Of a DNA stretch of 64,000 nucleotides, positions 2,643 to 61,821 are shown one piece after another. Position numbers and translations under genes: made by a program. The notes under the pieces are model-generated. The model was not told where the DNA came from. It did not search any database and saw nothing but the letters and a program-made list of their open reading frames with translations. Source of the stretch: Patescibacteria group bacterium (GTDB lineage: Bacteria; Patescibacteriota; UBA1384; XYA2-FULL-43-10; 1-14-0-10-43-13); the NCBI GenBank assembly GCA_041666325.1, contig JBAYHC010000004.1, positions 64,929 through 128,928 on the forward strand. The letters are read 5' to 3'. How positions within the stretch are numbered: the stretch's first letter is position 1; every line of letters starts with the position of its first letter.

Positions 2643-3023
2643 ATGGTTCGCCTTTCTGAGCTGCAAAGCATCAATCAGCCGACACCCGCATTGATGCAGT
2701 TAATCGACCGGCTTTGTGCCCGCATCCAACCCCTGACACCAAATGAGCTTCATTACGGCTTCGAATATCCGATGATCGGCCAGCCATTCTTTTACGTTAC
2801 CGAGATAGAACGCAAGAGATTGTTCAGATTCATTCCCCTTGGCAACAAGAAGAGATTGATCATGGCCATCTCTTCCGGATTTTTCGGAGAGGCTATTGGC
2901 AAAAAAGAAGTTCGAGGCTGGATTGGCAACAAGCAATTTGAAGCAATCATTCGCGAAGAGTTCGAGCGTTTTGCCTGCGATGTTGGTGCAAGCAGTCACA
3001 TGCTCGCCTATGCCTACCAATAG
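2643..3023 (+). CDS. hypothetical protein (126 aa)
   Basis: ORF preceded by GAGAGGAGAGC RBS-like sequence and followed by an intrinsic terminator. Confidence 0.45.
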   Translation: MVRLSELQSINQPTPALMQLIDRLCARIQPLTPNELHYGFEYPMIGQPFFYVTEIERKRLFRFIPLGNKKRLIMAISSGFFGEAIGKKEVRGWIGNKQFEAIIREEFERFACDVGASSHMLAYAYQ

Positions 3024-3037
3024 GGCGCCCCCATTAG

Positions 3038-3064
3038 CCGCAACAGCCCAGTTGCGGTTTTTTG
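3038..3064 (+). terminator. rho-independent terminator
   Basis: CCGCAAC-agccca-GTTGCGG hairpin followed by TTTTTTT. Confidence 0.6.
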
Positions 3065-3095
3065 ATTCACAGCCTCACCCCATGAATCAAAAAAC
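3057..3095. repeat. 12-bp inverted repeat TTTTTTGATTCA / TGAATCAAAAAA
   Basis: Perfect inverted repeat separated by 13 nt; the 15-mer AGTTTTTTGATTCAC recurs as a direct repeat near 3236-3252. Confidence 0.5.
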
Positions 3096-3253
3096 TAATT
3101 GTCTCTGAGATTTATTTTTCTTTCGTCATTCCAGACTTGATCTGGAATCCAGGCGCGATAACTATTTTATGGATCCTGAATCCCTTCGGTCTCGCTCAGG
3201 GCGGGCAAGTTCAGGATGACAACCTGAGAGCAGGATAGTTTTTTGATTCACGG

Positions 3254-3284
3254 ATTGACATACGCCCTAGTTCAGGCTATTATA
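3254..3284 (+). promoter_or_regulatory. sigma70-like promoter for the M50 protease gene
   Basis: TTGACA - 17 nt - TATTAT located about 45 nt upstream of the CDS start. Confidence 0.4.
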
Positions 3285-4307: not shown

Positions 4308-6686
4308 ATGCAAAATATATTCAAAATTGCCTTGATTTGTGGCGGACCCTCGCTTGAACGAGGCATTTCCCTCAATTCCGCCCGATCGGTCATGGATAAC
4401 TTGGAGGACGACAACATTGAAATCGTCCCGTTCTACCTTGACCAACAGAGAAGAGCTTATCGTCTATCCAAGCCGCAGCTTTACTCTAATACGCCCTCTG
4501 ATTTTGATTTTAAGCTTAGCCGGACCGCCAAGCCACTCAGCCAAATCTCCTTCATTCGCAGACTGAGAGAGTGTGATATCGCCTTCCCTGTCATGCACGG
4601 TACATACGGCGAAGACGGCGGGATTCAACGTTTTCTGGAGAAAAACTCGATTCCATTCGTTGGCTCCGACTCGACTTCATGCAAGCAGGTTTTTGATAAA
4701 TTCAACGCCCACCAACTTCTGGGGGATCTTGATTTCAAGGTTATGCCGACCGCGCTGCTCAAGATCTATCATCATGACCACAAGCAAATTATTGATAAAT
4801 TTTTTGAGGCAAACAAGATTAAGCACGCCGTCGTCAAGCCAGCAAGCGGCGGATCAAGTATGGGTGTTTTTCCGGTCAGTAATACGATCGAGGCGCTCGA
4901 GAGGGCCAACTACCTTTTTTCTAAGCGCATTGACACCAGGGTTGTACTAGAGCCGTTCGCCGAGGGTATAGAATTCACTACCATTGTACTCGAAAATCGT
5001 TTTGGCCAACCGGTGGCTATCTTGCCGACAGAGATTGAGGCTGATTATGCGGAGCACCAAATTTTCGATTTCCGCAAAAAATATTTGCCCACTCGCCACG
5101 TCACCTACCACTGCCCACCTCGTTTTCCCAACAAGCTGATCGAACAAATCCAGATTCAGGCAGAACAAATCTTTTCAGCCACCAAGATGTCTGATTTTGC
5201 ACGATTTGACGGCTGGGTATTATCAGACGGTTCGATCTGGTTTTCTGATTTGAATCCAATTAGTGGCATGGAGCAGCACAGCTTTCTCTTCCAGCAGGCC
5301 TCGCGAGTTGGGCTCAGCCACAGAGGTGTCTTGCGCCATATCGTCAAAAGCGCCTGCCGCCGGCAAAGCATTGACTTTCCGGAGCGCCAACCACAAGCCA
5401 AAACTAGGCGTCGCGAGATCAATATCCTTTTCGGAGGCAACACATCAGAACGCCAAGTCTCCCTCTTAAGCGGTACCAATGCTTGGCTCAAACTTTTACA
5501 ATCGAAAAAATACCTTCCCAAACCGTATCTACTCGATCGGGAAAACAATGTTTGGCAGTTACCTTACAGTCTTGTACTCAATCATACAGTCGAAGAGATT
5601 GCTACGAACTGCAGCAAATTCTCAAAGAGTGAAAGGCGCTTGCGCTATCTGGAGAACAGGGTCAGATTTAGGCTTGGTCTCAGCCCGGAATCGAGCGATG
5701 CGCCGCTCTTTGCACCCCAGAAGCTCTCTCTCAAGAATTTTATCAAGAACTCTTCCTTTGTCTTCAACGCCCTGCATGGCGGAGAGGGTGAGAACGGTAT
5801 CCTGCAGCAACAATTCGAAAAACTTGGCACAAAATACAATGGACCAGATGCCACAGTTTCAAATCTATGTGCTGACAAGGCTCTGACACTCGAAGCAGTC
5901 AAAGCGAGCGGCATTCCCGGCATACATACAGCAAACTACATCACAGTTAGCACCGACGAATTGATCCATTTTGATAATTTTGGACTGAGCAACTACTGGA
6001 AAAAAATACTGAAAGATCTCAAGGCTGACTCTGTCGTGATTAAGCCCAAGTCCGATGGCTGTTCCTCTGGTGTTGCCCACCTTTTCAACCACAAAGACCT
6101 GGCGAACTATATTCGAGCAATCAGGGAGAACTGGCCTTCTATCCCCAAGGGCACGCTCCCTCATCAATTGAATGACATTGAGATGCCGACAGAGCAGCCG
6201 CATGACTTTTTGATCGAAGAATATGTTACTACTGACAAAATCTCTGTTCGAAATAATAAGCTCAACTATCAGCGACGTCGGGGCTGGATCGAGGTAACGA
6301 TTGGTGTGATCGAAAAAGACAACGAGATAATTGCGCTCAACCCAAGCCTGACTGTGGCCTCCGGCGAAATACTTTCGGTTGAAGAGAAATTTCAGGGTGG
6401 TACAGGCATAAACATCACGCCTCCCCCAAAAGAAATTATCAGTCAAAAAGCAATTAACCGGACGAAAGAGTTGATTGGCAAATTATCAAATCGTCTTGGT
6501 ATCAAGGGCTATTCTCGAATCGACGCCTTTCTCCAAGTTGACCGCGGCGATCTCATTATCATTGAAATAAACACTCTCCCAGCACTCACGCCCTCGACCG
6601 TTCTCTTCCATCAGGCCCTAGCCGAAGAAAAGCCTCTCTATCCGCGAGAATTACTCGAACAAATCATCTCAAGTGCCGGATACTAA
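4308..6686 (+). CDS. ddl: tandem-duplicated D-alanine--D-alanine ligase (two complete Ddl / ATP-grasp modules in one 792-aa polypeptide)
   Basis: First module: IALICGGPSLERGISLNSA...HGTYGEDGGIQ...VVKPASGGSSMGV. Second module: INILFGGNTSERQVSLLSGTNA...ALHGGEGENGILQ...VIKPKSDGCSSGVAHL...IIIEINTLPALTPSTV. Both carry Ddl N-terminal, central and ATP-grasp signatures. Confidence 0.8.
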   Translation: MQNIFKIALICGGPSLERGISLNSARSVMDNLEDDNIEIVPFYLDQQRRAYRLSKPQLYSNTPSDFDFKLSRTAKPLSQISFIRRLRECDIAFPVMHGTYGEDGGIQRFLEKNSIPFVGSDSTSCKQVFDKFNAHQLLGDLDFKVMPTALLKIYHHDHKQIIDKFFEANKIKHAVVKPASGGSSMGVFPVSNTIEALERANYLFSKRIDTRVVLEPFAEGIEFTTIVLENRFGQPVAILPTEIEADYAEHQIFDFRKKYLPTRHVTYHCPPRFPNKLIEQIQIQAEQIFSATKMSDFARFDGWVLSDGSIWFSDLNPISGMEQHSFLFQQASRVGLSHRGVLRHIVKSACRRQSIDFPERQPQAKTRRREINILFGGNTSERQVSLLSGTNAWLKLLQSKKYLPKPYLLDRENNVWQLPYSLVLNHTVEEIATNCSKFSKSERRLRYLENRVRFRLGLSPESSDAPLFAPQKLSLKNFIKNSSFVFNALHGGEGENGILQQQFEKLGTKYNGPDATVSNLCADKALTLEAVKASGIPGIHTANYITVSTDELIHFDNFGLSNYWKKILKDLKADSVVIKPKSDGCSSGVAHLFNHKDLANYIRAIRENWPSIPKGTLPHQLNDIEMPTEQPHDFLIEEYVTTDKISVRNNKLNYQRRRGWIEVTIGVIEKDNEIIALNPSLTVASGEILSVEEKFQGGTGINITPPPKEIISQKAINRTKELIGKLSNRLGIKGYSRIDAFLQVDRGDLIIIEINTLPALTPSTVLFHQALAEEKPLYPRELLEQIISSAGY

Positions 6687-7434: not shown

Positions 7435-8172
7435 ATGCAGGTACTGGTCGTAGGCACAGGCAGATCCGATCTGCCCCTTGTCGATACTTTGCTTAACCAT
7501 GGCATTATTGTCTCCATAGCCAGCAGTGACGGAGCGGCCGAAAAGTTCAACAGGGTTAAACCCGACATCGTTTTGGTCACCATTGAAGGACCCCTTCACA
7601 CAGCGGAAACCATCGAGAAAATCGTGGAGATTGATCCTGATGCCAGGATCGTTGCCATTTGCTTTGGAGACTCCAACGATCTTAGAGCAACCATTCGATC
7701 AGGAGCAATCTCTATATTGCTAGCTCCTGTTGACGAGGAACTCTTGCTCAGGCGGCTTGAACAGGTTGCGAAGCGGACTCCGGCCATCGGCGTCGATTCC
7801 CAATCAAAGCCGGGGAGCGGCAAGAAGTTCCTGGTCGTTGACGACGAACGACATATAATTGCCTTAATGAAGCTCAACCTGGAGCTCGCCGGGTTCGAGG
7901 TGGCGACTGCCGCCGATGGCATCGAGGCAGTTGAACGGTATCGGGCGTTCCAGCCTGATGTTGTTTTCATGGATCTGTGTATGCCGCGGATGGACGGCAC
8001 CGAAGCGATTCAGAAGATTATTGAGATGGATCCCGATGCCAGGATTATCTCCTCTTGCGGCATCGAAGAGAACGACCATGCCGCCCAAGCGGCAGGCGCT
8101 CGGGATTCGATTACCAAACCCTTCGGCCCGACTGATCTGATTAACAAGGCCTTAGTCTTGATGAAAGAATAG
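7435..8172 (+). CDS. response regulator with two receiver domains (first degenerate pseudo-receiver, second canonical CheY-like)
   Basis: Second half: KFLVVDDERHII...PDVVFMDLCMPRMDGTEAI...SSCG. First half is receiver-like but has Thr where the phospho-acceptor Asp is expected (DIVLVTIEGP). Confidence 0.7.
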   Translation: MQVLVVGTGRSDLPLVDTLLNHGIIVSIASSDGAAEKFNRVKPDIVLVTIEGPLHTAETIEKIVEIDPDARIVAICFGDSNDLRATIRSGAISILLAPVDEELLLRRLEQVAKRTPAIGVDSQSKPGSGKKFLVVDDERHIIALMKLNLELAGFEVATAADGIEAVERYRAFQPDVVFMDLCMPRMDGTEAIQKIIEMDPDARIISSCGIEENDHAAQAAGARDSITKPFGPTDLINKALVLMKE

Positions 8173-8186
8173 TATCGCATTCTGTT

Positions 8187-8214
8187 AGGCGCCCCCCGTG
8201 GGGTGCCTTTTTTC
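8187..8214 (+). terminator. rho-independent terminator
   Basis: AGGCGCCCC-ccgt-GGGGTGCCT hairpin followed by TTTTTT. Confidence 0.6.
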
Positions 8215-8350
8215 TTTCAAAACCTAAAGTTCAATGAGCACCAATAGTCTGATTTATCAAAATTTATTTACCGCATTACCACAAACATCTCTTAGGCTGT
8301 ATTCAGAGCTTCAGTGGTGGCTACACCACCTCCGATCAACCATATCTTAA

Positions 8351-8416
8351 GTGTCATCCTGAGGAACCTGCCGATTTGGCAGGTGACGTGAGGATCCCAT
8401 CATCGCGTTAGCGACG
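8351..8416 (+). other. candidate structured RNA motif, copy 1 (UCAUCCUGAG-hairpin-GUGAGGAUCCCAU-hairpin-CGAC)
   Basis: Shares an ordered motif with 21753-21810; stems differ by compensatory changes (ATCCT/AGGAT vs ATCCC/GGGAT; inner hairpins CCTGCC/GGCAGG vs GCAAG/CTTGC). Confidence 0.4.
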
Positions 8417-8574
8417 GGATTTCTCGCTTTGATTCATTCCGCCCGGCGGAAGGTCCCTCGGCAAGCTCGGAATGGCTTCGCCAGTTCACGCCAATGGCTC
8501 TAAATGACACCAAGGGAAGGGATTGCTGCGCCTCAAATGCATTAGCTAACGCTTGTGATCTCTAACTTTTAAAA

Positions 8575-8605
8575 CAAAAGCCCCTGAAGAGGGGCATCGG
8601 TGCGA
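8575..8605 (-). terminator. rho-independent terminator for the minus-strand nucleotidyltransferase gene
   Basis: On the minus strand: GCCCCTCTTCAGGGGC followed by TTTTGTTTT. Confidence 0.55.
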
Positions 8606-8607
8606 GC

Positions 8608-9444
8608 TTAAATCGGGGCTGGAGCAGTACGAACAAGATAGTTCTCAATAGAGCCGAGAAAGCTAAGCAGGACAATGCCACAATCAGCAACTCTCGTCTC
8701 GACCTCATACCACACTGCAGGATTGGGGTTAGTAAGCTGTTGCCCAAGGCAAACAGCATATTCCAGCCGCATCGCATCCAGATGAAGAAAGTCTTCGATC
8801 GCACCAGTATCCCGCAACAAAACATCCGGATCAAAGCAATCATGCATATCGTACATGTCCTGAAAACGGAAAAGCACATGGCGGTGAACACTCAGAATAT
8901 CGCCAAGCCAGTCGTACCAAGAATCGCCCCGGATACCGATCCCGCTACCTCGCTGACGGATAAAGTTGCCACGCGCCTTGTCAATCTTGCGAGCAACATA
9001 GCCAATGAGGTCGTCGCGGGAATTACCTGGCAACCCCGGTACGCAATCTATTGACCCCTTAATCAAGCCGCCCTTAGCAATAGCCCAATTGAGATGTCTG
9101 GCATAGCCATGACGAAGAGTATGGAGGCCAGCTTCCAGCTCATCCTCCGTCACAACATGGGGCTCAAATGGAACACCGTGCTCTGCTGCATCGGCACTGA
9201 TTGCACTGATCTGGGCTAAAGCCTCAACAATCTCGAATGAGCGCAATCCCTTGCCCAGGCAAACGACAAGATCAATATCGCTAGCCGGTGAGAGCATGTG
9301 CCGGACAGCCGAACCGGCCAAGATTGCCCAAGAAACATATTCGTTTTGGTCAATCGCCGCTCGCGCCAAATCGATAATCCGATCGAAATCTTCGACAGAT
9401 GGCACCAGTTTGTCCCGAATATCGGAGTATGGAATGAATCGCAT
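8608..9444 (-). CDS. Pol-beta superfamily nucleotidyltransferase domain protein
   Basis: GS-x9-DxD signature LAGSAVRHMLSPASDIDLVVCL; C-terminal helical region containing RHGYARH. Confidence 0.6.
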   Translation of the reverse strand: MRFIPYSDIRDKLVPSVEDFDRIIDLARAAIDQNEYVSWAILAGSAVRHMLSPASDIDLVVCLGKGLRSFEIVEALAQISAISADAAEHGVPFEPHVVTEDELEAGLHTLRHGYARHLNWAIAKGGLIKGSIDCVPGLPGNSRDDLIGYVARKIDKARGNFIRQRGSGIGIRGDSWYDWLGDILSVHRHVLFRFQDMYDMHDCFDPDVLLRDTGAIEDFLHLDAMRLEYAVCLGQQLTNPNPAVWYEVETRVADCGIVLLSFLGSIENYLVRTAPAPI

Positions 9445-16880: not shown

Positions 16881-19292
16881 ATGAATCGGAGCGAGCTAGT
16901 CAGGGCCGTGGCGGACAAGACGGATTTTTCGCTGGTCAAATCAGATAAGTTGGTTACCGCCCTGTGCGACACCATTACAGAAGCTTTAGAACGAGGCGAC
17001 AGAGTCGTCTATTCTAACTTTGGTTCGTTTTACACCGTCCACTATCCCTCAAAGGTCATCATCCATCCCAAGCTTGGCCTGGCTAAAAAAATGATAATGT
17101 TACCAACAAACGTAGCCAAATGGATGCCATCAGAGAATATAAAGAGTTTGGTCAGATCCGGTGAAACCAAGGGTTCGCCAACGCTCCACGCACTAAAATC
17201 AACCAACAAAGAAGTTCCGTCCGGTACCATCGTAGCGAGCAACAACACTACGAGAACGGTTCGCGATGAAACACCAGACTCCGATGAAACCATCGTACCA
17301 ATCCGTCTCTCCAGCCGAAACGCCAAAAACATTGTCGGGGCAGAAATTAACCCCGAACAGAAAAACAAAAATATCAACATCTATGAAGAGTTAATGCAGG
17401 ACGGCAGCAAAGAAGAGACAACTTTTAATGGCGCAATCAGGGTCCCCAAAGACAGAAGCAAGCCATTTTGGAGCAAGCTCTTTAATCGCTCTAAAGACCA
17501 GGAATCATCTACCCCAACAATTGGTCACATAGACAACCAAAACAAAGACACCCAGAAAGTCTCACTGGTTGATTCAGGCGTATTCGATCCCGCCAGCAAA
17601 CCGGAAACTATGGCAGTGCAAGCCACTGCGGAACAAAGCGCTGGAGCCGGTCTTGCCAGTCATCCTCAGGGCGAGACAGTTTCAGTTCAGACAAACAATG
17701 ATCAGACACCCATCGAAAAACCCATTGCGCCATTTCCATCTAATCCGATGGAGATCTCGTATATAGATCTATCCAAAGCGATTGTTCCCAAAGAAATTCT
17801 ACAAAAAATCCCTGAGAAAATTGCTCGCCACTACGGAGTCGTGCCAGTCGAGGAGAACGATAACGAGCTTGTCGTTGCCATGACAGATCCCGAGGACATC
17901 GAGGCGAAAGAGTTAATCAAGAAGTATGCCCAAAAGCCGCTAAAAGTGAGGCTTGGCACACAAGCCGACATCAACCATGTGCTAGACCAATACCAAGGAC
18001 TAGAGTCAGAAGTCCTGGAAGCTATCGAAGAAGTGAACACCGAAGAGGAGGAGAACAACAAAACAGACAACGGCAAGGCAGCAAATCTTACGGTTGCCGA
18101 CGATGCTCCAACAGCAAGGATTGTCAATTCTCTCCTCAGGCGCGCGATTCGAGATAAGGCCTCGGACGTACATATTGAACCACTAGAGAATGAGGTTCAG
18201 GTCCGCTTCAGAATTGATGGCGTTTTACACAAAAAGTTAACTTTACCAAAAGATATTCAGCTGTCAGTCTCCTCCAGGATAAAGATCCTATCCAACATAA
18301 AGATTGACGAGCAACGCTTGCCTCAAGACGGACGATTTAGCATAAGCATCGACAACAGAAGAGTAGATTTTCGTGTCTCCACTCTCCCCACGGCTTACGG
18401 CGAAAAAATTGTCATGAGAATCCTAGATAAGGCCTCTGGAGTTTTAACAGTTGAGCAACTTGGTCTTCAGGGCATGGGCCTCGACGCGCTAACTCAAAAT
18501 CTAGAAAAATCACATGGCATGATCCTGGTGACTGGCCCAACGGGATCAGGTAAAACCACTACTCTTTACGCCCTGATTGATAAGCTTTTTGCCGAGGGCG
18601 TTAATATCGTCACTCTCGAAGACCCGATCGAGTACCAGATGCCAGGCATTAACCAGAGCCAGGTTAACTCCAACATAGACTACACTTTTGCATCAGGATT
18701 GCGCTCAATAGTCAGGCAGGATCCGGATATTATTATGATCGGGGAAATTAGAGACATGGACACAGCCGAGATGGCGGTTCAGGCCGCCCTGACCGGCCAC
18801 GTTGTCCTCTCCACTCTCCACACCAATGATGCTGCCGGCGCAGCACCGCGATTAATAGATATGGGTGTCGAGCCATTTCTTCTTACCTCCTCGGTCAATG
18901 TCATTATCGGACAACGCCTCGCCAGAAAGATATGCGATGAGTGCAAGGAGAAAGATGCGATTCCTGAAGCAGAGATAGAGAGCGTCAAAAAAATTATCGA
19001 CACTATGCCCGAAAAAGAAAAGAAGGAAATGTCCAGCAAGGAGCTTGTTTTCTATAAGGGAAAGGGTTGCAAATCCTGCGACAACACAGGCTATCGTGGC
19101 AGAATCGGCATATTCGAGGTCCTAAGTGTTACCGAGACAGTCAGAGATTTGGTTCTGCGCAAGGTCTCCTCGGGAGAGATTCAGACCAAGGCAATCGAGG
19201 ACGGGATGGTAACAATGATTCAAGACGGAATAATTAAGTCCCTTGAAGGCAAAACCTCGCTGGAAGAGGTTTGGAGAGTAACAAAAGATTAA
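16881..19292 (+). CDS. pilB: type IV pilus assembly ATPase PilB/GspE family with N-terminal HU/IHF-like DNA-binding domain and disordered linker
   Basis: C-terminal Walker A VTGPTGSGKTTTLYA, the GspE N-domain and a tetracysteine motif CDECK...CKSCDNTGYRGR. Residues 1-90 (MNRSELVRAVADKTDFSLVKSDKLVTALCDTITEALERGDRVVYSNFGSFYTV...) align with HU/IHF, followed by a Ser/Thr/Asn/Gln-rich linker of about 190 aa. Confidence 0.85.
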   Translation: MNRSELVRAVADKTDFSLVKSDKLVTALCDTITEALERGDRVVYSNFGSFYTVHYPSKVIIHPKLGLAKKMIMLPTNVAKWMPSENIKSLVRSGETKGSPTLHALKSTNKEVPSGTIVASNNTTRTVRDETPDSDETIVPIRLSSRNAKNIVGAEINPEQKNKNINIYEELMQDGSKEETTFNGAIRVPKDRSKPFWSKLFNRSKDQESSTPTIGHIDNQNKDTQKVSLVDSGVFDPASKPETMAVQATAEQSAGAGLASHPQGETVSVQTNNDQTPIEKPIAPFPSNPMEISYIDLSKAIVPKEILQKIPEKIARHYGVVPVEENDNELVVAMTDPEDIEAKELIKKYAQKPLKVRLGTQADINHVLDQYQGLESEVLEAIEEVNTEEEENNKTDNGKAANLTVADDAPTARIVNSLLRRAIRDKASDVHIEPLENEVQVRFRIDGVLHKKLTLPKDIQLSVSSRIKILSNIKIDEQRLPQDGRFSISIDNRRVDFRVSTLPTAYGEKIVMRILDKASGVLTVEQLGLQGMGLDALTQNLEKSHGMILVTGPTGSGKTTTLYALIDKLFAEGVNIVTLEDPIEYQMPGINQSQVNSNIDYTFASGLRSIVRQDPDIIMIGEIRDMDTAEMAVQAALTGHVVLSTLHTNDAAGAAPRLIDMGVEPFLLTSSVNVIIGQRLARKICDECKEKDAIPEAEIESVKKIIDTMPEKEKKEMSSKELVFYKGKGCKSCDNTGYRGRIGIFEVLSVTETVRDLVLRKVSSGEIQTKAIEDGMVTMIQDGIIKSLEGKTSLEEVWRVTKD

Positions 19293-19437
19293 TAAAGGCA
19301 AAAGTTAGCAAGGCACCAGGCGAAAAAGATGCGGTCAAGAAAGAATGTGGTTCTCTTACGCCTTACGCCTTTCACACTTACGCCCGCCTGCATCGTCTGG
19401 AGCGAAGCGACTGCGGGCAGGCCTTACACCATTTATC
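19290..19437 (+). repeat. intergenic repeat element copy A (AGGCAAAAGTTAGCAAG ... hairpin CGCCCGCCTGCATCGYCTGGAGCGAAGCGACTGCGGGCAGGC ... ACACC) immediately upstream of pilC
   Basis: Near-identical 42-nt hairpin core also at 20697-20739 and 37956-37998; flanking modules are also shared. Confidence 0.6.
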
Positions 19438-20628
19438 ATGCAATACACCTACAGCGCAAAAGATGACAAGGGAAATATTATAAAAGGCACGCTAGAAGCA
19501 GCGTCTGAAATCTCGGCTGCGAACGCTCTCCGCGCCAAGGCCCTTTTCCTGCTGGACCTCAAGACCAAAAAATCCCCAAGAGCGATTTGGCAACGCCGTG
19601 TTCCGCTCAAGGAGAGAATTATCTTTACTCAGCAATTGGAGATTATGGTCAGATCAGGCTTACCGCTCGTTGATGCGATCACATCTCTCCAGGAAGAAAC
19701 CGAAAACAAAAGATTTGCCTCCGAACTCTCGCAAGTTGTGGCTAGTGTGGAAACGGGATCACTTCTTTCGGACGCACTGGCCAAATTCCCCAAAACTTTC
19801 AGCGAAGTATACGTCAACCTGGTACGATCCGGAGAGAAGACGGGCCAACTAGACAAAGTCCTGCAACGTCTGTCTGGTCAACTTCAGAAAGACTTTGAGG
19901 TAAATAGAAAGGTGAAGGGCGCCCTATCCTACCCACTGTTTATTCTCACTGCGCTGATTGGCGTGATGGTTTTGATTCTAAACGCGATTATCCCGCAACT
20001 GCAACAAATATTTGACGATGTTGGTGCCGAGCTTCCCCTTTCTACCCGCATCGTGATTGGGGCTAGTAAATTTACACGAAGCTATGGCGTTTTTACTCTG
20101 GCGTTTATCATTGTGGCAATTGTCTTAATATCCCGTTGGCTCAAAACAGCCCAAGGCAAGAGATTCTTTGATCGTTTTTTACTGAAAATACCGGTTATCG
20201 GACTCTTGCTCAGAAAGTCGTACCTGGCTCGCTTGACTCGTACCTTTGCTGCTTTATCAAACGCCGGCCTACCAGTGCTTGAGGCGCTGCGGGTGTCGAG
20301 CAATGTAATCGGAAACTCCGTCTACGAAAGAGAGGTTGTGAAGGTTGCCGACAGAGTAAAAAATGGGCAAACAATCTCGAAGGCGTTCGGAGAGAGCCCG
20401 CTATTTCCGGCAATGATTATGCAGCTAGCCTCTGTTGGCGAAAAGTCCGGCAACATCGGAGAGGTTTTTGACAGCTTGGCCGACTTCTTCGACAGGGATG
20501 TCGACTCCATAACAACAAATTTATCAACAATGCTTGAACCACTGTTAGTCATTATTCTGGGTGTTGGGATAGCAGCCATCATCATATCTGTTCTGCAGCC
20601 AATCTATGGATTAGTAAATACGATGTAG
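19438..20628 (+). CDS. pilC: type IV pilus inner-membrane platform protein PilC (GspF family)
   Basis: Two GspF repeats and three TM segments. Start placed at MQYTYSAKD because the upstream tool start would translate through the repeat element. Confidence 0.8.
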   Translation: MQYTYSAKDDKGNIIKGTLEAASEISAANALRAKALFLLDLKTKKSPRAIWQRRVPLKERIIFTQQLEIMVRSGLPLVDAITSLQEETENKRFASELSQVVASVETGSLLSDALAKFPKTFSEVYVNLVRSGEKTGQLDKVLQRLSGQLQKDFEVNRKVKGALSYPLFILTALIGVMVLILNAIIPQLQQIFDDVGAELPLSTRIVIGASKFTRSYGVFTLAFIIVAIVLISRWLKTAQGKRFFDRFLLKIPVIGLLLRKSYLARLTRTFAALSNAGLPVLEALRVSSNVIGNSVYEREVVKVADRVKNGQTISKAFGESPLFPAMIMQLASVGEKSGNIGEVFDSLADFFDRDVDSITTNLSTMLEPLLVIILGVGIAAIIISVLQPIYGLVNTM

Positions 20629-20630
20629 AT

Positions 20631-20764
20631 GTTAGGCGAAAGTTAGCAAGACGAAAGTAAGACAAGTATCGATTCAAGCAGCAGCTCTGACACCTTGCGC
20701 CCGCCTGCATCGCCTGGAGCGAAGCGACTGCGGGCAGGCTTTTTACACCATTATTTGGAGACGT
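20631..20764 (+). repeat. intergenic repeat element copy B immediately upstream of pilM
   Basis: AGGCGAAAGTTAGCAAGACGAAAG ... GCGCCCGCCTGCATCGCCTGGAGCGAAGCGACTGCGGGCAGGC ... TTTTTACACC. Confidence 0.6.
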
Positions 20765-21706
20765 ATGTTTCTTCCCTTCTCTGAAAATTCAATTGTGGGT
20801 CTTGATATCGGCTTTGAAACGCTGAAGCTTGTCGAGCTCAACAAGGGCGGCGGCAAAGTTTCTCTGCGCGGCTTAAGCAATATTTCTCTACCAGAGCGCA
20901 TACTGGAGCGAGACCACTTCAAGGACAAAAAGGCCACTGCGCAGCTAATTGCAAAAGCTTGCGAGGAGGCAAAACCAGCCTCGATCAAGGCCAGAAAAAT
21001 TGTCTCTGCACTGCCAGAAACGTTTGTCTTCTCCAAGACAATTCAACTACCAAAGATGGAGGAAGGTGAATACGAAAAAGCTGTACCGATGGAAGCAGCT
21101 CAGTTCTTGCCCATACCTATCGAACACGTCTATCTTGACTTCGAGGTGCTCATCACCAGACCAGACCAACCGCTTGCAGACATCCTTATCGTCGCGTCAC
21201 CAAAACGCTTAGTCGAAGAGTACGTCGAGGTTGCCCAGTTGGCAGGATTTGAATTAACTGCCCTTGAACCAAAAGCTCTGGCAGTCGGCAGAGCCCTTTT
21301 GCCGCATGATTTCACTGAAGGAGTACTGATAGCCGAGATTGGGACGGAAATCACCAGAATATCGATTTGGGACGGAAATAAGCTTAGGCTGACAACGACT
21401 GTCAGCGCTGGCAACAACCAGATAGCCGAGAGCACCAAAGCGGGTGATTTTCACCATTTGCTTCCGATTATTGACGAGGTAGTAACCGCCATACGCTATC
21501 ATCAAAATCGCGATTATCAACCAAAACCAATTAGTAAAATTTTGCTATGCGGATCAGGCGCCTGCATTCCAGGCATAGATAAAATATTTGAAAACGAGAG
21601 TAAAATTAAGGTTGAGATTGCTAGGCCACAACTTCACGGCGAAGACGAGCTTGGGCCAGAATACACAACAGCATTCGGCCTGGCGCTAAGAGGAGAATAT
21701 GAATAA
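20765..21706 (+). CDS. pilM: type IV pilus assembly protein PilM (actin-like ATPase fold)
   Basis: IVGLDIGFETLKLVEL N-terminal actin-like start and LLCGSGACIPGIDK C-terminal block. Confidence 0.8.
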   Translation: MFLPFSENSIVGLDIGFETLKLVELNKGGGKVSLRGLSNISLPERILERDHFKDKKATAQLIAKACEEAKPASIKARKIVSALPETFVFSKTIQLPKMEEGEYEKAVPMEAAQFLPIPIEHVYLDFEVLITRPDQPLADILIVASPKRLVEEYVEVAQLAGFELTALEPKALAVGRALLPHDFTEGVLIAEIGTEITRISIWDGNKLRLTTTVSAGNNQIAESTKAGDFHHLLPIIDEVVTAIRYHQNRDYQPKPISKILLCGSGACIPGIDKIFENESKIKVEIARPQLHGEDELGPEYTTAFGLALRGEYE

Positions 21707-21752
21707 ATCAGAGTGTGAAAGGGCGAAAGTTCTAAGCACTAAGTAACACGCA

Positions 21753-21810
21753 GTGTCATCCCGAGCAAGTGAGGCTTGCGAGTCGAGGGATCCCATTGCA
21801 ACAATGCGAC
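21753..21810 (+). other. candidate structured RNA motif, copy 2 (UCAUCCCGAG-hairpin-GUCGAGGGAUCCCAU-hairpin-CGAC) in the pilM-pilN spacer
   Basis: See copy 1 at 8351-8416. Flanked by the inverted repeats GTGTGAAAG / CTTTCACAC and CTAAGCACTAAGT / ACTTAGTAC. Confidence 0.4.
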
Positions 21811-21868
21811 TCCTTTCGCCCCACAAAGGAGCCCCTGGTGGGACACTTAGTACTTTCACACCAATATC

Positions 21869-22408
21869 ATGTCCATTAATTTACTGCCACCAAAATTAAA
21901 GAAACAGAAAGGCGTTGAAAAAAAGCTTCGCTCAGTTTTGCTTGGCCTGATTTATCTCGCCGCCATGATCCTGGTTTTAAGCGGGGTGCTCTTTTCCTTC
22001 AATATTGTGAATAAAAATGAACTCGACCAAGTGATCGCACGCACAGAGGCGTACAAGACAGAAGCAAAAGCATACTCAGAGATCAAGGAAAAAATAACTA
22101 AGACCAACAGCAAGTTAGACAAAATCAGCCAGATAGACAATAACCGCGTTTTGTGGAGTGTCATAATCGCTGAAATAGAGATCCTTACTCCAGCTCAAGT
22201 CACAATTCGCACTATGGACCTATCCCACGATTCCAAGATCATTAATACAGTTGGAAAAGCTGAAAGCCGCTATGACGTTGTTCTGTTCAAGGACAAACTA
22301 GAGGCTTCACCGTTCTTCAAAAATGTCACCTTTTCCTCTTCGTCCTTCAATCCAGATGAGAACAATTACTCCTTTGCCTTAAAGTTCGAGCTGGAGAAAA
22401 ATAAATGA
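21869..22408 (+). CDS. pilN: type IV pilus assembly protein PilN
   Basis: MSINLLPPKLKKQK start, a single TM helix, then a coiled-coil/periplasmic domain; position after pilM. Confidence 0.7.
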   Translation: MSINLLPPKLKKQKGVEKKLRSVLLGLIYLAAMILVLSGVLFSFNIVNKNELDQVIARTEAYKTEAKAYSEIKEKITKTNSKLDKISQIDNNRVLWSVIIAEIEILTPAQVTIRTMDLSHDSKIINTVGKAESRYDVVLFKDKLEASPFFKNVTFSSSSFNPDENNYSFALKFELEKNK

Positions 22409-36420: not shown

Positions 36421-36494
36421 TCCGAGATCGTCTAGTGGCAGGACAGCGGATTCTGGCTCCGCTAACCTAGGTTCGAATCCTAGTCTCGGAACCA
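36421..36494 (+). tRNA. tRNA-Gln (anticodon CUG)
   Basis: Hand-folded: acceptor UCCGAGA/UCUCGGA, anticodon stem GCGGA/UCCGC with loop UUCUGGC, T-arm CUAGG-UUCGAAU-CCUAG, encoded ACCA. Confidence 0.8.
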
Positions 36495-36665
36495 AGAAAA
36501 GAGCTTTCATTGAGAGCTCTTTTCTTGGTTTGTAGGATTCGAACTGGGAAGGGGTCGGGAAACGGGAGTTTCCCGTGTCGGAAGGTTGGGAAACCGAGGG
36601 TTTCCCAAAGCGAGACGTAGAAGCGAGCGCTCGAGATCCTAGTCTCGGAACCAAGAAAAGCACTC
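36495..36665 (+). repeat. tRNA-Gln-linked repeat: terminator-like 16-bp hairpin, shared 31-nt GGGAAAC/GTTTCCC motif (antisense), then a direct duplicate of the tRNA 3' end plus a loop-flipped hairpin
   Basis: GA(A)TCCTAGTCTCGGAACCAAGAAAAG occurs at 36474-36499 and 36638-36665; the hairpin loops agctttcattgagagct and cactctcaatgaaagtg are near reverse complements. Confidence 0.6.
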
Positions 36666-37904: not shown

Positions 37905-38040
37905 GGTGTATAACTTAGGCAAAAGGCGAAAGGAAAGCAAATATATGGCCCTCTTGCGCCCGCATGCATCGCCTGGAGCGAAGCGACTGCGGGCAGGCCT
38001 CTCACACTTACGCCTAATATATGCTATAATCCCTCATATC
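37905..38040 (+). repeat. intergenic repeat element copy C immediately upstream of gmk
   Basis: AGGCAAAAGGCGAAAGG ... GCGCCCGCATGCATCGCCTGGAGCGAAGCGACTGCGGGCAGGC ... CACACTTACGCC, followed by an extended -10 TGCTATAAT. Confidence 0.6.
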
Positions 38041-61393: not shown

Positions 61394-61465
61394 AGATTTA
61401 TCTCAAAATTAAAAACTCAAACCCCAAAACCATTGTAGCGCATCTCTACTCACTTAGGGAAATTT

Positions 61466-61744
61466 TGGTACCCGCGACAGGACTTTCACGTCGCCCTGCT
61501 CCCTAGGAACCCACGGTTCCTAGTGTCCTCCCCTAGCGGGAAACTCCCGTTTCCCGACCCCTTCCCAGGTTCAAACTCTTCATCGCCAGAAAACAAAAAT
61601 CACCTTTCGGTGATAATATAGGCCCCTCGACAAGCTCGGGGTCATTCGACTTCATGCCACGAATAAACAAGAAGGCATTTTAAAATATGGCTTGCCATGA
61701 GCGAAATCCCGATTTATCGGGATGGAGTCGAATGGTACCCGCGA
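61466..61744. repeat. tRNA-Arg-linked repeat: 20-nt direct duplicate of the tRNA 3' end (61466-61485) and intervening hairpin-rich segment containing the shared 31-nt motif
   Basis: TGGTACCCGCGACAGGACTT occurs at 61466 and 61745; CGGGAAACTCCCGTTTCCCGACCCCTTCCCAG lies at about 61540-61575 in the same relative orientation as downstream of tRNA-Gln. Confidence 0.6.
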
Positions 61745-61821
61745 CAGGACTTGAACCTGTGACCTTCAGATCCGCAATCTGACGCTCTATCCAACTGAGC
61801 TACGCGGGCAGACATAGCAAG
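61745..61821 (-). tRNA. tRNA-Arg (anticodon GCG as parsed)
   Basis: Hand-folded: acceptor GCCCGCG/CGCGGGU, D-arm GCUC-AGUUGGAUA-GAGC, anticodon stem UCAGA/UCUGA with loop UUGCGGA, T-arm ACAGG-UUCAAGU-CCUGU, ACCA. Confidence 0.75.

Follow-up and report, generated by a model that had tools for sequence, protein, structure and literature searches.

We analyzed a 64,000-nucleotide stretch of a Patescibacteria group bacterium genome (hereafter the window, with coordinates counted from its first nucleotide), in which a first-pass annotation had proposed a structured RNA present in two copies, copy 1 at 8351-8416 and copy 2 at 21753-21810. Our data indicate that these sequences are probably dispersed palindromic DNA repeat units resembling repetitive extragenic palindromic (REP) elements. 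They would belong to the (C/T)GTC-tagged family that includes the Neisseria dRS3/NTS repeats and the Ssn-related motifs (SRMs) and that is associated with Ssn, a single-domain GIY-YIG nuclease. The window is best read as carrying three gene-less head-to-head pairs of such units, an intact pair at 3124-3223 and two pairs with a decayed partner at 8351-8476 and 21753-21846. A unit opens with the tag (G)TGTC, which is unpaired, continues with an imperfect palindrome that has AT at its start and at its end, and finishes with a closing C followed by a CCA-like tail. Long units have, in place of the short loop, conserved GAG...CGA(A/G)G shoulders with purine-rich G.A mismatches that surround a nested hairpin of free sequence.

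Two published descriptions frame this reading. Di Nocera, De Gregorio, and Rocco (2013; PMC3733652) described four families of CGTC-tagged REPs, with members including Neisseria dRS3 and Rickettsia RPE-4 and RPE-6. These REPs have an unpaired CGTC tag (variants TGTC and CCTC), a stem of 8-9 bp with A and T at positions 1 and 2, a loop of 4-5 nucleotides (nt), and a CCA tail. They are multi-copy and occur mostly as head-head dimers with the tags outside, frequently as heterodimers, and spacers that have a small stem-loop at one end are described. They are intergenic, between unidirectional or convergent genes, and were not found to flank genes for RAYTs or other transposases. According to Chenal et al. 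(2025; PMC11893778), SsnA, a 94-amino-acid (aa) single-domain GIY-YIG nuclease, binds and cuts the Neisseria NTS (CGTCATTCCCGCGMAVGCGGGAATCYRG; dRS3 is part of it) in the form of single-stranded DNA (ssDNA). SsnA does not cut double-stranded DNA and shows no interaction with the RNA form of NTS. The three bases before the palindrome (GTC) matter most for cutting and the C after it for binding. The nuclease gene lies between two repeats (NTS-ssnA-NTS). Homologues occur widely, and transformation of N. meningitidis by NTS-bearing DNA is lowered by the Ssn system.

Tagged palindromic units in the window

Re-reading and folding of the two reported copies reproduced the positions, hairpins, CGAC ends, and compensatory changes that the first-pass annotation had described. 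Both copies have the order GTGTCATCC[T/C]GAG, an inner hairpin, ...GGATCCCAT, a small second hairpin, and CGAC. The inner hairpin is CCTGCC/GGCAGG in copy 1 and GCAAG/CTTGC in copy 2, the second hairpin is TCGC/GCGA and CATTG/CAATG, respectively, and the outer pair T:A of copy 1 (ATCCT/AGGAT) is changed to C:G in copy 2 (ATCCC/GGGAT). The order of the shared motif stands as first described, with one correction in detail: copy 1 carries GTGAGGATCCCAT and copy 2 carries GAGGGATCCCAT, one G more. Folding recovered the outer stem and inner hairpin in each copy. From shuffles, 0.08 occurrences of ATCCYGAG-N8-38-RGGATC would be expected in the window, which has two. The long unit itself spans 8351-8400 (plus strand; GTGTCATCCTGAGGAACCTGCCGATTTGGCAGGTGACGTGAGGATCCCAT) in copy 1 and 21753-21796 (plus strand; GTGTCATCCCGAGCAAGTGAGGCTTGCGAGTCGAGGGATCCCAT) in copy 2, and the respective spacer hairpins run to 8415 and 21810.

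The element had been taken for a two-copy element, and we found a third locus within the same window. The minus strand carries a third long unit (copy 3; 3169-3223, GTTGTCATCCTGAA...TTCAGGATCCAT), and beside it the plus strand has a short unit of the classical kind (3124-3153) that resembles NTS; together they form an intact head-to-head dimer (3124-3223) with the tags outside and a 15-nt spacer. The tag is TGTC at 8352-8355, at 21754-21757, and in the minus-strand unit at 3169-3223, and CGTC at 3124-3127. The arms start with AT in all four units (ATCCT/AGGAT, ATCCC/GGGAT, ATCCTGAA/TTCAGGAT in copy 3, and ATTCCAGA/TCTGGAAT in the short unit), GTC 5' of the palindrome and C 3' of it are present in four of four, and the tails after the palindrome read CCCAT (copies 1 and 2), CCAT (copy 3), and CCAGG (short unit). 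The components of the three loci are as follows.

3124-3153, plus strand: classical short unit, partner of copy 3; CGTC-ATTCCAGA-CTTGA-TCTGGAAT-CCAGG, with tag CGTC, 8-bp stem, 5-nt loop, and CCA tail.
3169-3223, minus strand: copy 3, long-type unit A; GTTGTCATCCTGAA-cttgcccgccctgagcgagaccgaaggga-TTCAGGATCCAT, with an 8-bp outer stem; covariance model score 13.2 bits, E 0.27, outside the training set of the model.
8351-8400, plus strand: copy 1, long-type unit A; tag G-TGTC at 8351-8355, palindrome ATCCT...AGGAT at 8356-8395, nested hairpin CCTGCC/GGCAGG, closing C at 8396, tail CCAT; subtype GAGGA-hairpin-GACGTGAGGATC; covariance model score 40.8 bits, with this copy in the training set.
8401-8451, plus strand: spacer between the two units of the copy 1 pair; small hairpin TCGC-GTTA-GCGA at 8403-8414 and a decayed unit-like stretch, GGGATTTCTCGC.
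8452-8476, minus strand: decayed inverted partner of copy 1 (unit B); plus strand GGTCCCTCGGCAAGCTCGGAATGGC, minus-strand unit GCCATTCCGAGCTTGCCGAGGGACC; tag mutated, GCCAT for GTCAT.
21753-21796, plus strand: copy 2, a unit A of the long type, of subtype GAGC..-hairpin-GAGTCGAGGGATC; the tag is G-TGTC, the palindrome ATCCC...GGGAT contains the nested hairpin GCAAG/CTTGC, and the closing C precedes the tail CCAT; covariance model score 46.6 bits, with this copy in the training set.
21797-21846, unstranded: spacer and strongly decayed inverted partner of copy 2; hairpin CATTG-CAA-CAATG at 21794-21806 overlaps the tail of unit A, and the partner at about 21819-21846 ends in ...GGTGGGACAC.
21707-21868, plus strand: the entire spacer of 162 nt between pilM and pilN; within it, GTGTGAAAG..ACTAAGT at 21713-21744 and ACTTAGTACTTTCACAC at 21845-21861 form an outer inverted repeat on either side of the unit pair.

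The decayed partner of copy 1 has an intact counterpart at locus L018 (...GGGATCCCTCGGCAAGCTCGGGATGAC). The partner of copy 2 is a weak assignment that draws only on its position and its terminal GACAC. A covariance model (R1), built from 42 units and run on the window and its flanks, matched only the three long units, with all else at or below 10 bits. Generic tag-plus-stem scans of the window were noisy (2.1 matches expected in shuffles) and gave nothing beyond the three loci.

Some further repeats lie near or resemble these units. The minus-strand sequence at about 61640-61668 (gtcgaATGACCCCGAGCTTGTCGAGGGGCC) may be a fourth unit in degenerate form; it has GAG...CGA shoulders like those of the long units, and it shares CCGAGCTTG(T/C)CGAGGG with the decayed partner of copy 1. 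Around the copy 3 pair, GTGAATCAAAAAAC occurs three times (3069, 3090 as reverse complement, and 3251), forming a 38-nt imperfect inverted repeat that brackets the pair. Terminator-like hairpins of the form AAAAAACCGCAAC...GTTGCGGTTTTTT recur at 743-772 and 3037-3066.

Dispersed units with covarying stems in other genomes

We searched one genome per species (185,579 species) with the pattern GTGTCATCCYGAG-N12-42-GGATCCCAT and found 63 matches in 55 loci, all in metagenome-assembled genomes (MAGs), against about 4 expected by chance as estimated from uniform base composition. The matches fall in Lachnospiraceae and other Firmicutes, Patescibacteria, Gammaproteobacteria, Fibrobacter, Acidobacteriota, Verrucomicrobia (Chthoniobacterales), Bacteroidota (Prolixibacteraceae), Melainabacteria, Nitrospinota, Atribacter, and Rhodothermales, and several of these genomes contain multiple copies. 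The search pattern left a single pair of the outer stem free to vary. This pair covaries: alignment A3 of 42 units has UA 31 times, CG 10 times, and CA once; once later loci were added, the same pair (Y10:R43) was T:A in 140, C:G in 36, and otherwise composed in 14 of 190 distinct units.

The sequence between the arms is copy-specific and 10-44 nt long, and the inner hairpin differs in almost every copy. Three shoulder subtypes were found: GAGG-hairpin-CCGAAGG, GAGGA-hairpin-GACG(A/T)(A/G)AGG (the subtype of copy 1), and GAGCG.AG-hairpin-G.AGTCGARGG (the subtype of copy 2). An inverted second unit with its GTCAT tag directed outward lies within 130 nt of 29 of the 57 copies, with several decayed partners in addition, and the second unit of a pair is usually of another subtype than the first. 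The GTC tag and the closing C are also present in these partner units, on which the search pattern placed no constraint. Units occur in both orientations beside unrelated housekeeping genes; a Pfam analysis of 117 open reading frames (ORFs) within 400 nt of units returned diverse housekeeping families and no recurrent neighbour gene or transposase.

One Acidobacteriota MAG contig (CAVSFK010000004.1; loci L040 and L058) contains six identical long units with identical flanks, irregularly spaced over about 8 kb. This arrangement suggests a larger repeated block or local amplification of a dimer rather than independent insertions.

Units flank genes for Ssn-like GIY-YIG nucleases

We queried a protein collection with a consensus of the approximately 95-aa GIY-YIG family. 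The consensus matched thousands of proteins in many phyla at up to 86% identity, including a protein of Candidatus Doudnabacteria, a member of the candidate phyla radiation (CPR). Genes for approximately 95-aa GIY-YIG proteins of one CPR genome, one Nitrospirae genome, and a cyanobacterium (Planktothrix) are bracketed by units (canonical examples, L062-L066). The CPR locus reads ctGTCATTCCGGCCCTGAGCCGGAATCCAG - gene - CTGGATTCTGACTTTCGTCAGAATGAC. In the Nitrospirae genome, cGTCATTCCCGCGAAAGCGGGAATCCAG, an exact match to the NTS consensus, lies upstream of the gene and an inverted unit lies downstream, and Planktothrix has the same layout of unit, gene, and inverted unit. L065 has such an exact NTS-consensus match. 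Beside two of these genes we noted tandem arrays of partial tags, GGGATGTCAGGAATGAC downstream in L065 (1816-2000) and ATTCCCAACTATCCAATCTCCTG upstream in L066 (1250-1500), which look like stuttered copies of the unit end.

Long units show the same linkage. Scanning metagenomes for GTCATCCYGAG-N12-42-GGATC with Y-[VI]-Y-I-L codons 8-38 nt behind it returned 74 loci against about 0.5 expected for an assumed collection size, and at these 74 loci a long unit like those of the window lies 0-28 nt upstream of an Ssn-like GIY-YIG ORF. Approximately 65 of 77 matches open a complete ORF of 93-110 aa with the sequence YYVYILTN..LYIGVTN.L.RR..EHK...GFTKKY..LVYFE...AI.REKQ.KGW. There are 41 distinct proteins, all of which match the NTS-flanked proteins (E<=3e-12, 37-64% identity), and all five proteins tested match the Pfam GIY-YIG family PF01541. 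At most of these loci an inverted unit follows right behind the stop codon. Furthermore, both window subtypes have close twins among the units upstream of ssn-like genes: the nested-hairpin flanks of copy 1 (CCTGAGGA... and ...GACGTGAGGATC) recur in units directly upstream of such genes, for example at L079, and the conserved flanks of copy 2 are found in the ssn-flanking units of L085 and L088.

Fit to published repeat families

The first-pass annotation could assign the element to no known class, and we found that it fits the published CGTC-tagged REPs and Ssn-related motifs (PMC3733652, PMC11893778). The short unit at 3124-3153 has every listed feature of a CGTC-tagged REP as defined in PMC3733652. 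Like the window units, NTS/dRS3 and the SRMs have a GTC tag 5' of a palindrome that starts with AT, a C directly 3' of it, and a CCA/CYRG-like tail. Like the long family, they occur as hundreds of dispersed, oriented copies and in the order repeat-ssn-repeat with outward tags, an order seen for canonical and long units alike. The window units differ from them in length (44-57 nt rather than 28 nt), in the GAG...CGA(A/G)G shoulders that enclose a variable nested hairpin, and in their host, a CPR MAG. In 2013 the CGTC-REP superfamily was known from five phyla, and CPR, Firmicutes, Acidobacteria, and further groups reported here were not among them. Neither published definition appears to cover the architecture of the long units or their spread over many phyla. 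A literature text search with GTCATCCTGAG and related 13-mers returned only coincidences with primers, and the supplements of PMC3733652 contain no matching unit sequence.

The units also share features with other mobile palindromes. With REP, BIME, and REPIN elements they have in common short imperfect palindromes, an unpaired conserved tag, inverted doublets, and a bracketed single-copy gene for a nuclease specific for ssDNA hairpins; the tag is (C/T)GTC instead of GTAG, and the enzyme is a GIY-YIG nuclease instead of an HUH/Y1 transposase (RAYT). Miniature inverted-repeat transposable elements (MITEs) are similarly gene-less, keep both ends of a gene-carrying cassette, measure approximately 100-130 bp, and insert into intergenic DNA. 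In contrast to MITEs, each "terminal repeat" is itself a hairpin here, no target-site duplication is definable, and Ssn is not known to transpose.

Proposed mechanism and its weak points

We propose that the full form of the element is a head-to-head pair of units, tags outside, that brackets a gene for an approximately 95-aa single-domain GIY-YIG nuclease (Ssn). When the tagged strand becomes single-stranded, during replication, repair, or uptake of transforming DNA, the unit would fold into a hairpin, and Ssn would bind the hairpin and the closing C and cut a few nucleotides 5' of the tag. On this model, the compensatory changes would reflect the need for an ssDNA hairpin with fixed protein-contact bases and not for an RNA fold. 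An Ssn may act on the window copies, and the units may have an effect in this organism. The gene-less pairs presumably arose by mobilisation or by gene loss.

Several observations weigh against this reading. The long units have all features of CGTC-tagged REPs except stem and loop size, with outer stems of 5-8 bp, 24-30 nt between the arms, and a nested hairpin; since they depart from the published 8-9 bp stem and 4-5 nt loop, we treat them as a variant. The published SRM string, HGTCWYN(0-2)YYVSBRHN(0-5)WNVSBRGN(0-2)RNCYNB, has no match in the window (average of 0.23 in shuffles); it matches the L065 unit and misses the ssn-flanking CPR unit of L062 and the short unit at 3124. Specific binding and cutting of ssDNA on the tagged strand is described for the Neisseria and Wolbachia enzymes only (PMC11893778). 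The approximately 95-aa family we searched is presumably the published Ssn family cd10448, as suggested by its size, single domain, numbering consistent with Y6/Y17/E64, and exact-NTS flanks. Regular-expression and tblastn searches detected no ssn/GIY-YIG gene in the window or in the adjoining 7.4 kb upstream and 8.4 kb downstream on the contig (approximately 80 kb in all), and no ssn-like gene in the 55 genome loci. The Ssn system may be extinct in this genome, because only three unit loci lie in approximately 80 kb and two of the pairs are decayed. Finally, the exceptions at the covarying pair (T:G 5 vs C:A 4) do not discriminate between DNA and RNA.

A bolder version of the proposal, which we hold to be possible though doubtful, is that the long units are an undescribed subclass of Ssn targets with its own GIY-YIG clade (N-terminus YVYILTN...) in many phyla including CPR, a subclass that escapes the published SRM search, and that the gene-less pairs are copied in trans by that nuclease.

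Alternative explanations

The first-pass annotation had read the changes in hairpin sequence as selection on RNA structure, and a structured non-coding or cis-regulatory RNA, such as a processing or stability element in the pil operon, would account for the compensatory changes. It would also suit copy 2, which lies in a co-directional operon and is almost certainly transcribed, and copy 1, whose fold is far more stable than those of its shuffled controls (z -3.4). The authors of PMC3733652 argue for transcription of many REPs and for their possible action on mRNA. However, the other strand of copy 1 folds about equally (z -3.2), copy 2 folds as RNA no better than shuffles (z 0.0), copies 1 and 3 lie beyond terminators, and the neighbours are unrelated across the 117 ORFs. 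The units are found in either orientation and also form inverted pairs, and no interaction of SsnA with RNA of its target was observed (PMC11893778). Rfam, named in the first-pass annotation as a check, gave no relevant match: only four tRNAs reach the gathering score in the window, and the best result of an E-value scan of 8150-8650, abiF, scored 19.7 bits where the gathering score is 37 and covered the inner hairpin only. Selection for a hairpin with changing sequence is confirmed by the 190 units, and the RNA part of the claim is not, given dispersed units in both orientations and beyond terminators. The transcribed pilM-pilN copy may have an RNA role, but such a role is not needed by the data and misfits the other copies, and we regard an RNA as a very unlikely explanation. 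The same annotation had listed, as an outcome that would speak against it, an element lying inside a longer repeat with another explanation, and this is the situation we found.

Intergenic inverted doublets of imperfect palindromes resemble REPINs and BIMEs, copy 2 is an insertion, and further inverted repeats bracket copies 2 and 3, all of which would be expected of a classical REP/REPIN mobilised by RAYT (an IS200/IS605-type Y1 transposase) or of a MITE of another insertion sequence. The tag is nonetheless (C/T)GTC instead of GTAG, CGTC REPs flank no RAYT or other transposase genes (PMC3733652), and the gene that does lie between such units encodes a GIY-YIG nuclease. No transposase family recurs in the 117 neighbour ORFs, and none is present among the best 25 of 77 matched gene families of the window. 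We regard a transposase-driven origin as very unlikely. It is less improbable, and in our judgment still unlikely, that the units are decayed, functionless relics that spread in an ancestor and are now neutral in intergenic DNA. The degenerate partner in two of three pairs, the low density of units, the lack of a detectable ssn gene in the approximately 80 kb of contig, and a pilM-pilN spacer that is invariant in three samples would all agree with relics, yet in the three long units and the short unit the outer stem is intact and both tag and closing C are retained. Relics would share their origin with the Ssn-associated repeats that we favour and differ from them only in present activity.

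Two known RNA folds were considered and rejected. The similarity of CUGAGGA-hairpin-GAC/GAA to the hammerhead ribozyme core (CUGANGA-stem II-GAAA) fails at the A14 position, which is C in the GAGGA subtype, and at A9, which is C in the GAGGCC subtype, and there is no Rfam hammerhead match. A K-turn would share the tandem G.A pairs, and its 3-nt bulge is absent.

Genomic context of the units

All three window loci are intergenic, and the gene neighbourhoods given in the first-pass annotation, a convergent spacer for copy 1 and pilM-pilN for copy 2, were correct. Copy 1 lies in the 435-nt spacer of the convergent ORFs 7435-8172 (plus strand) and 8608-9444 (minus strand), and copy 2 in the 162-nt spacer between pilM and pilN. 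The following terminator-like features flank copies 1 and 3.

3036-3059, plus strand: terminator-like hairpin that follows gene 2643-3023; this hairpin and a promoter-like site at 3255-3283 (11/12 matches) enclose copy 3.
8187-8208, plus strand: intrinsic terminator-like hairpin and T-run ending gene 7435-8172; copy 1 lies downstream.
8580-8595, minus strand: intrinsic terminator-like hairpin and T-run at the end of the convergent gene 8608-9444, with copy 1 beyond.

Because they are flanked by these terminator-like and promoter-like sites, copies 1 and 3 are probably not part of the neighbouring mRNAs. The block that contains copy 2 is an insertion, since the pilM-pilN spacer of 162 nt in the window is only 2-3 nt long in two syntenic relatives (L059 and L060). 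The spacer is identical in three metagenome contigs from the same organism. The NCBI record of the window PilN is that of a Patescibacteria group MAG, and its nearest relatives are 37-42% identical; the protein collection contained no close relative with an exact empty site (nearest PilN, 42% identical).

The window contains a second palindromic repeat family, 55 nt long and 87-93% identical among its copies at 19377-19431, 20694-20748, and 37953-38007 (CTTGCGCCCGCCTGCATCGCCTGGAGCGAAGCGACTGCGGGCAGGC). It has a GCCCGC/GCGGGC hairpin and no GTCAT tag, and two of its copies lie where pilB meets pilC and where pilC meets pilM. With copy 2 included, there is a palindromic insert at every junction of pilB, pilC, pilM, and pilN, where a syntenic relative has 2, 76, and 3 nt. 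Each of these inserts is followed at once by a short leader of similar sequence, (T)ACACCA(T/A)T..ATG, ahead of pilC, pilM, and pilN (19425-19440, 20742-20767, and 21855-21871), which may be a shared translation-initiation or promoter-proximal signal. PilB (16881-19289, plus strand) has an N-terminal HU-like Bac_DNA_binding domain fused to MshEN and T2SSE, a fusion also present in a syntenic relative at 37% identity. A pilus motor of a CPR bacterium that binds DNA may be relevant to DNA uptake.

Elsewhere in the window, a 792-aa ORF at 4308-6686 (plus strand) encodes two complete tandem D-Ala-D-Ala ligase modules (Dala_Dala_lig_N and _C, twice). Two tRNA genes, tRNA-Gln (36421-36494, plus strand) and tRNA-Arg (61733-61809, minus strand), are each followed by approximately 140-250 nt and then by a direct repeat of their own 3' end (GATCCTAGTCTCGGAACCA at 36636-36655 and GTCCTGTCGCGGGTACCA near 61463-61480, respectively). 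The two inserts have a perfect 32-mer in common (36544-36575, the reverse complement of 61537-61568) and look like small att-flanked inserts at tRNA 3' ends.

Implications

These results remove a false lead: the window would carry no new riboswitch-like RNA, rather a DNA repeat whose covariation stems from the requirement for an ssDNA hairpin. The units also matter for annotation, as they create spurious small ORFs and inflate intergenic spacers, as in the pilus operon here. The Ssn/CGTC-REP system would be extended to a longer unit type, which the published motif definitions miss, and to more lineages including CPR. The 41 distinct proteins are candidate nucleases with presumptive long-hairpin substrates, and they are of use for the current development of Ssn enzymes into tools that cut ssDNA at specific sites. 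The gene-less pairs and their gene-carrying counterparts provide data for the question of how tag-bearing REPs spread without a transposase. If copying in trans by an Ssn-like nuclease were true, unit-ssn-unit would be a transposon-like element driven by a GIY-YIG ssDNA nuclease, and its mechanism of mobilisation would be new.

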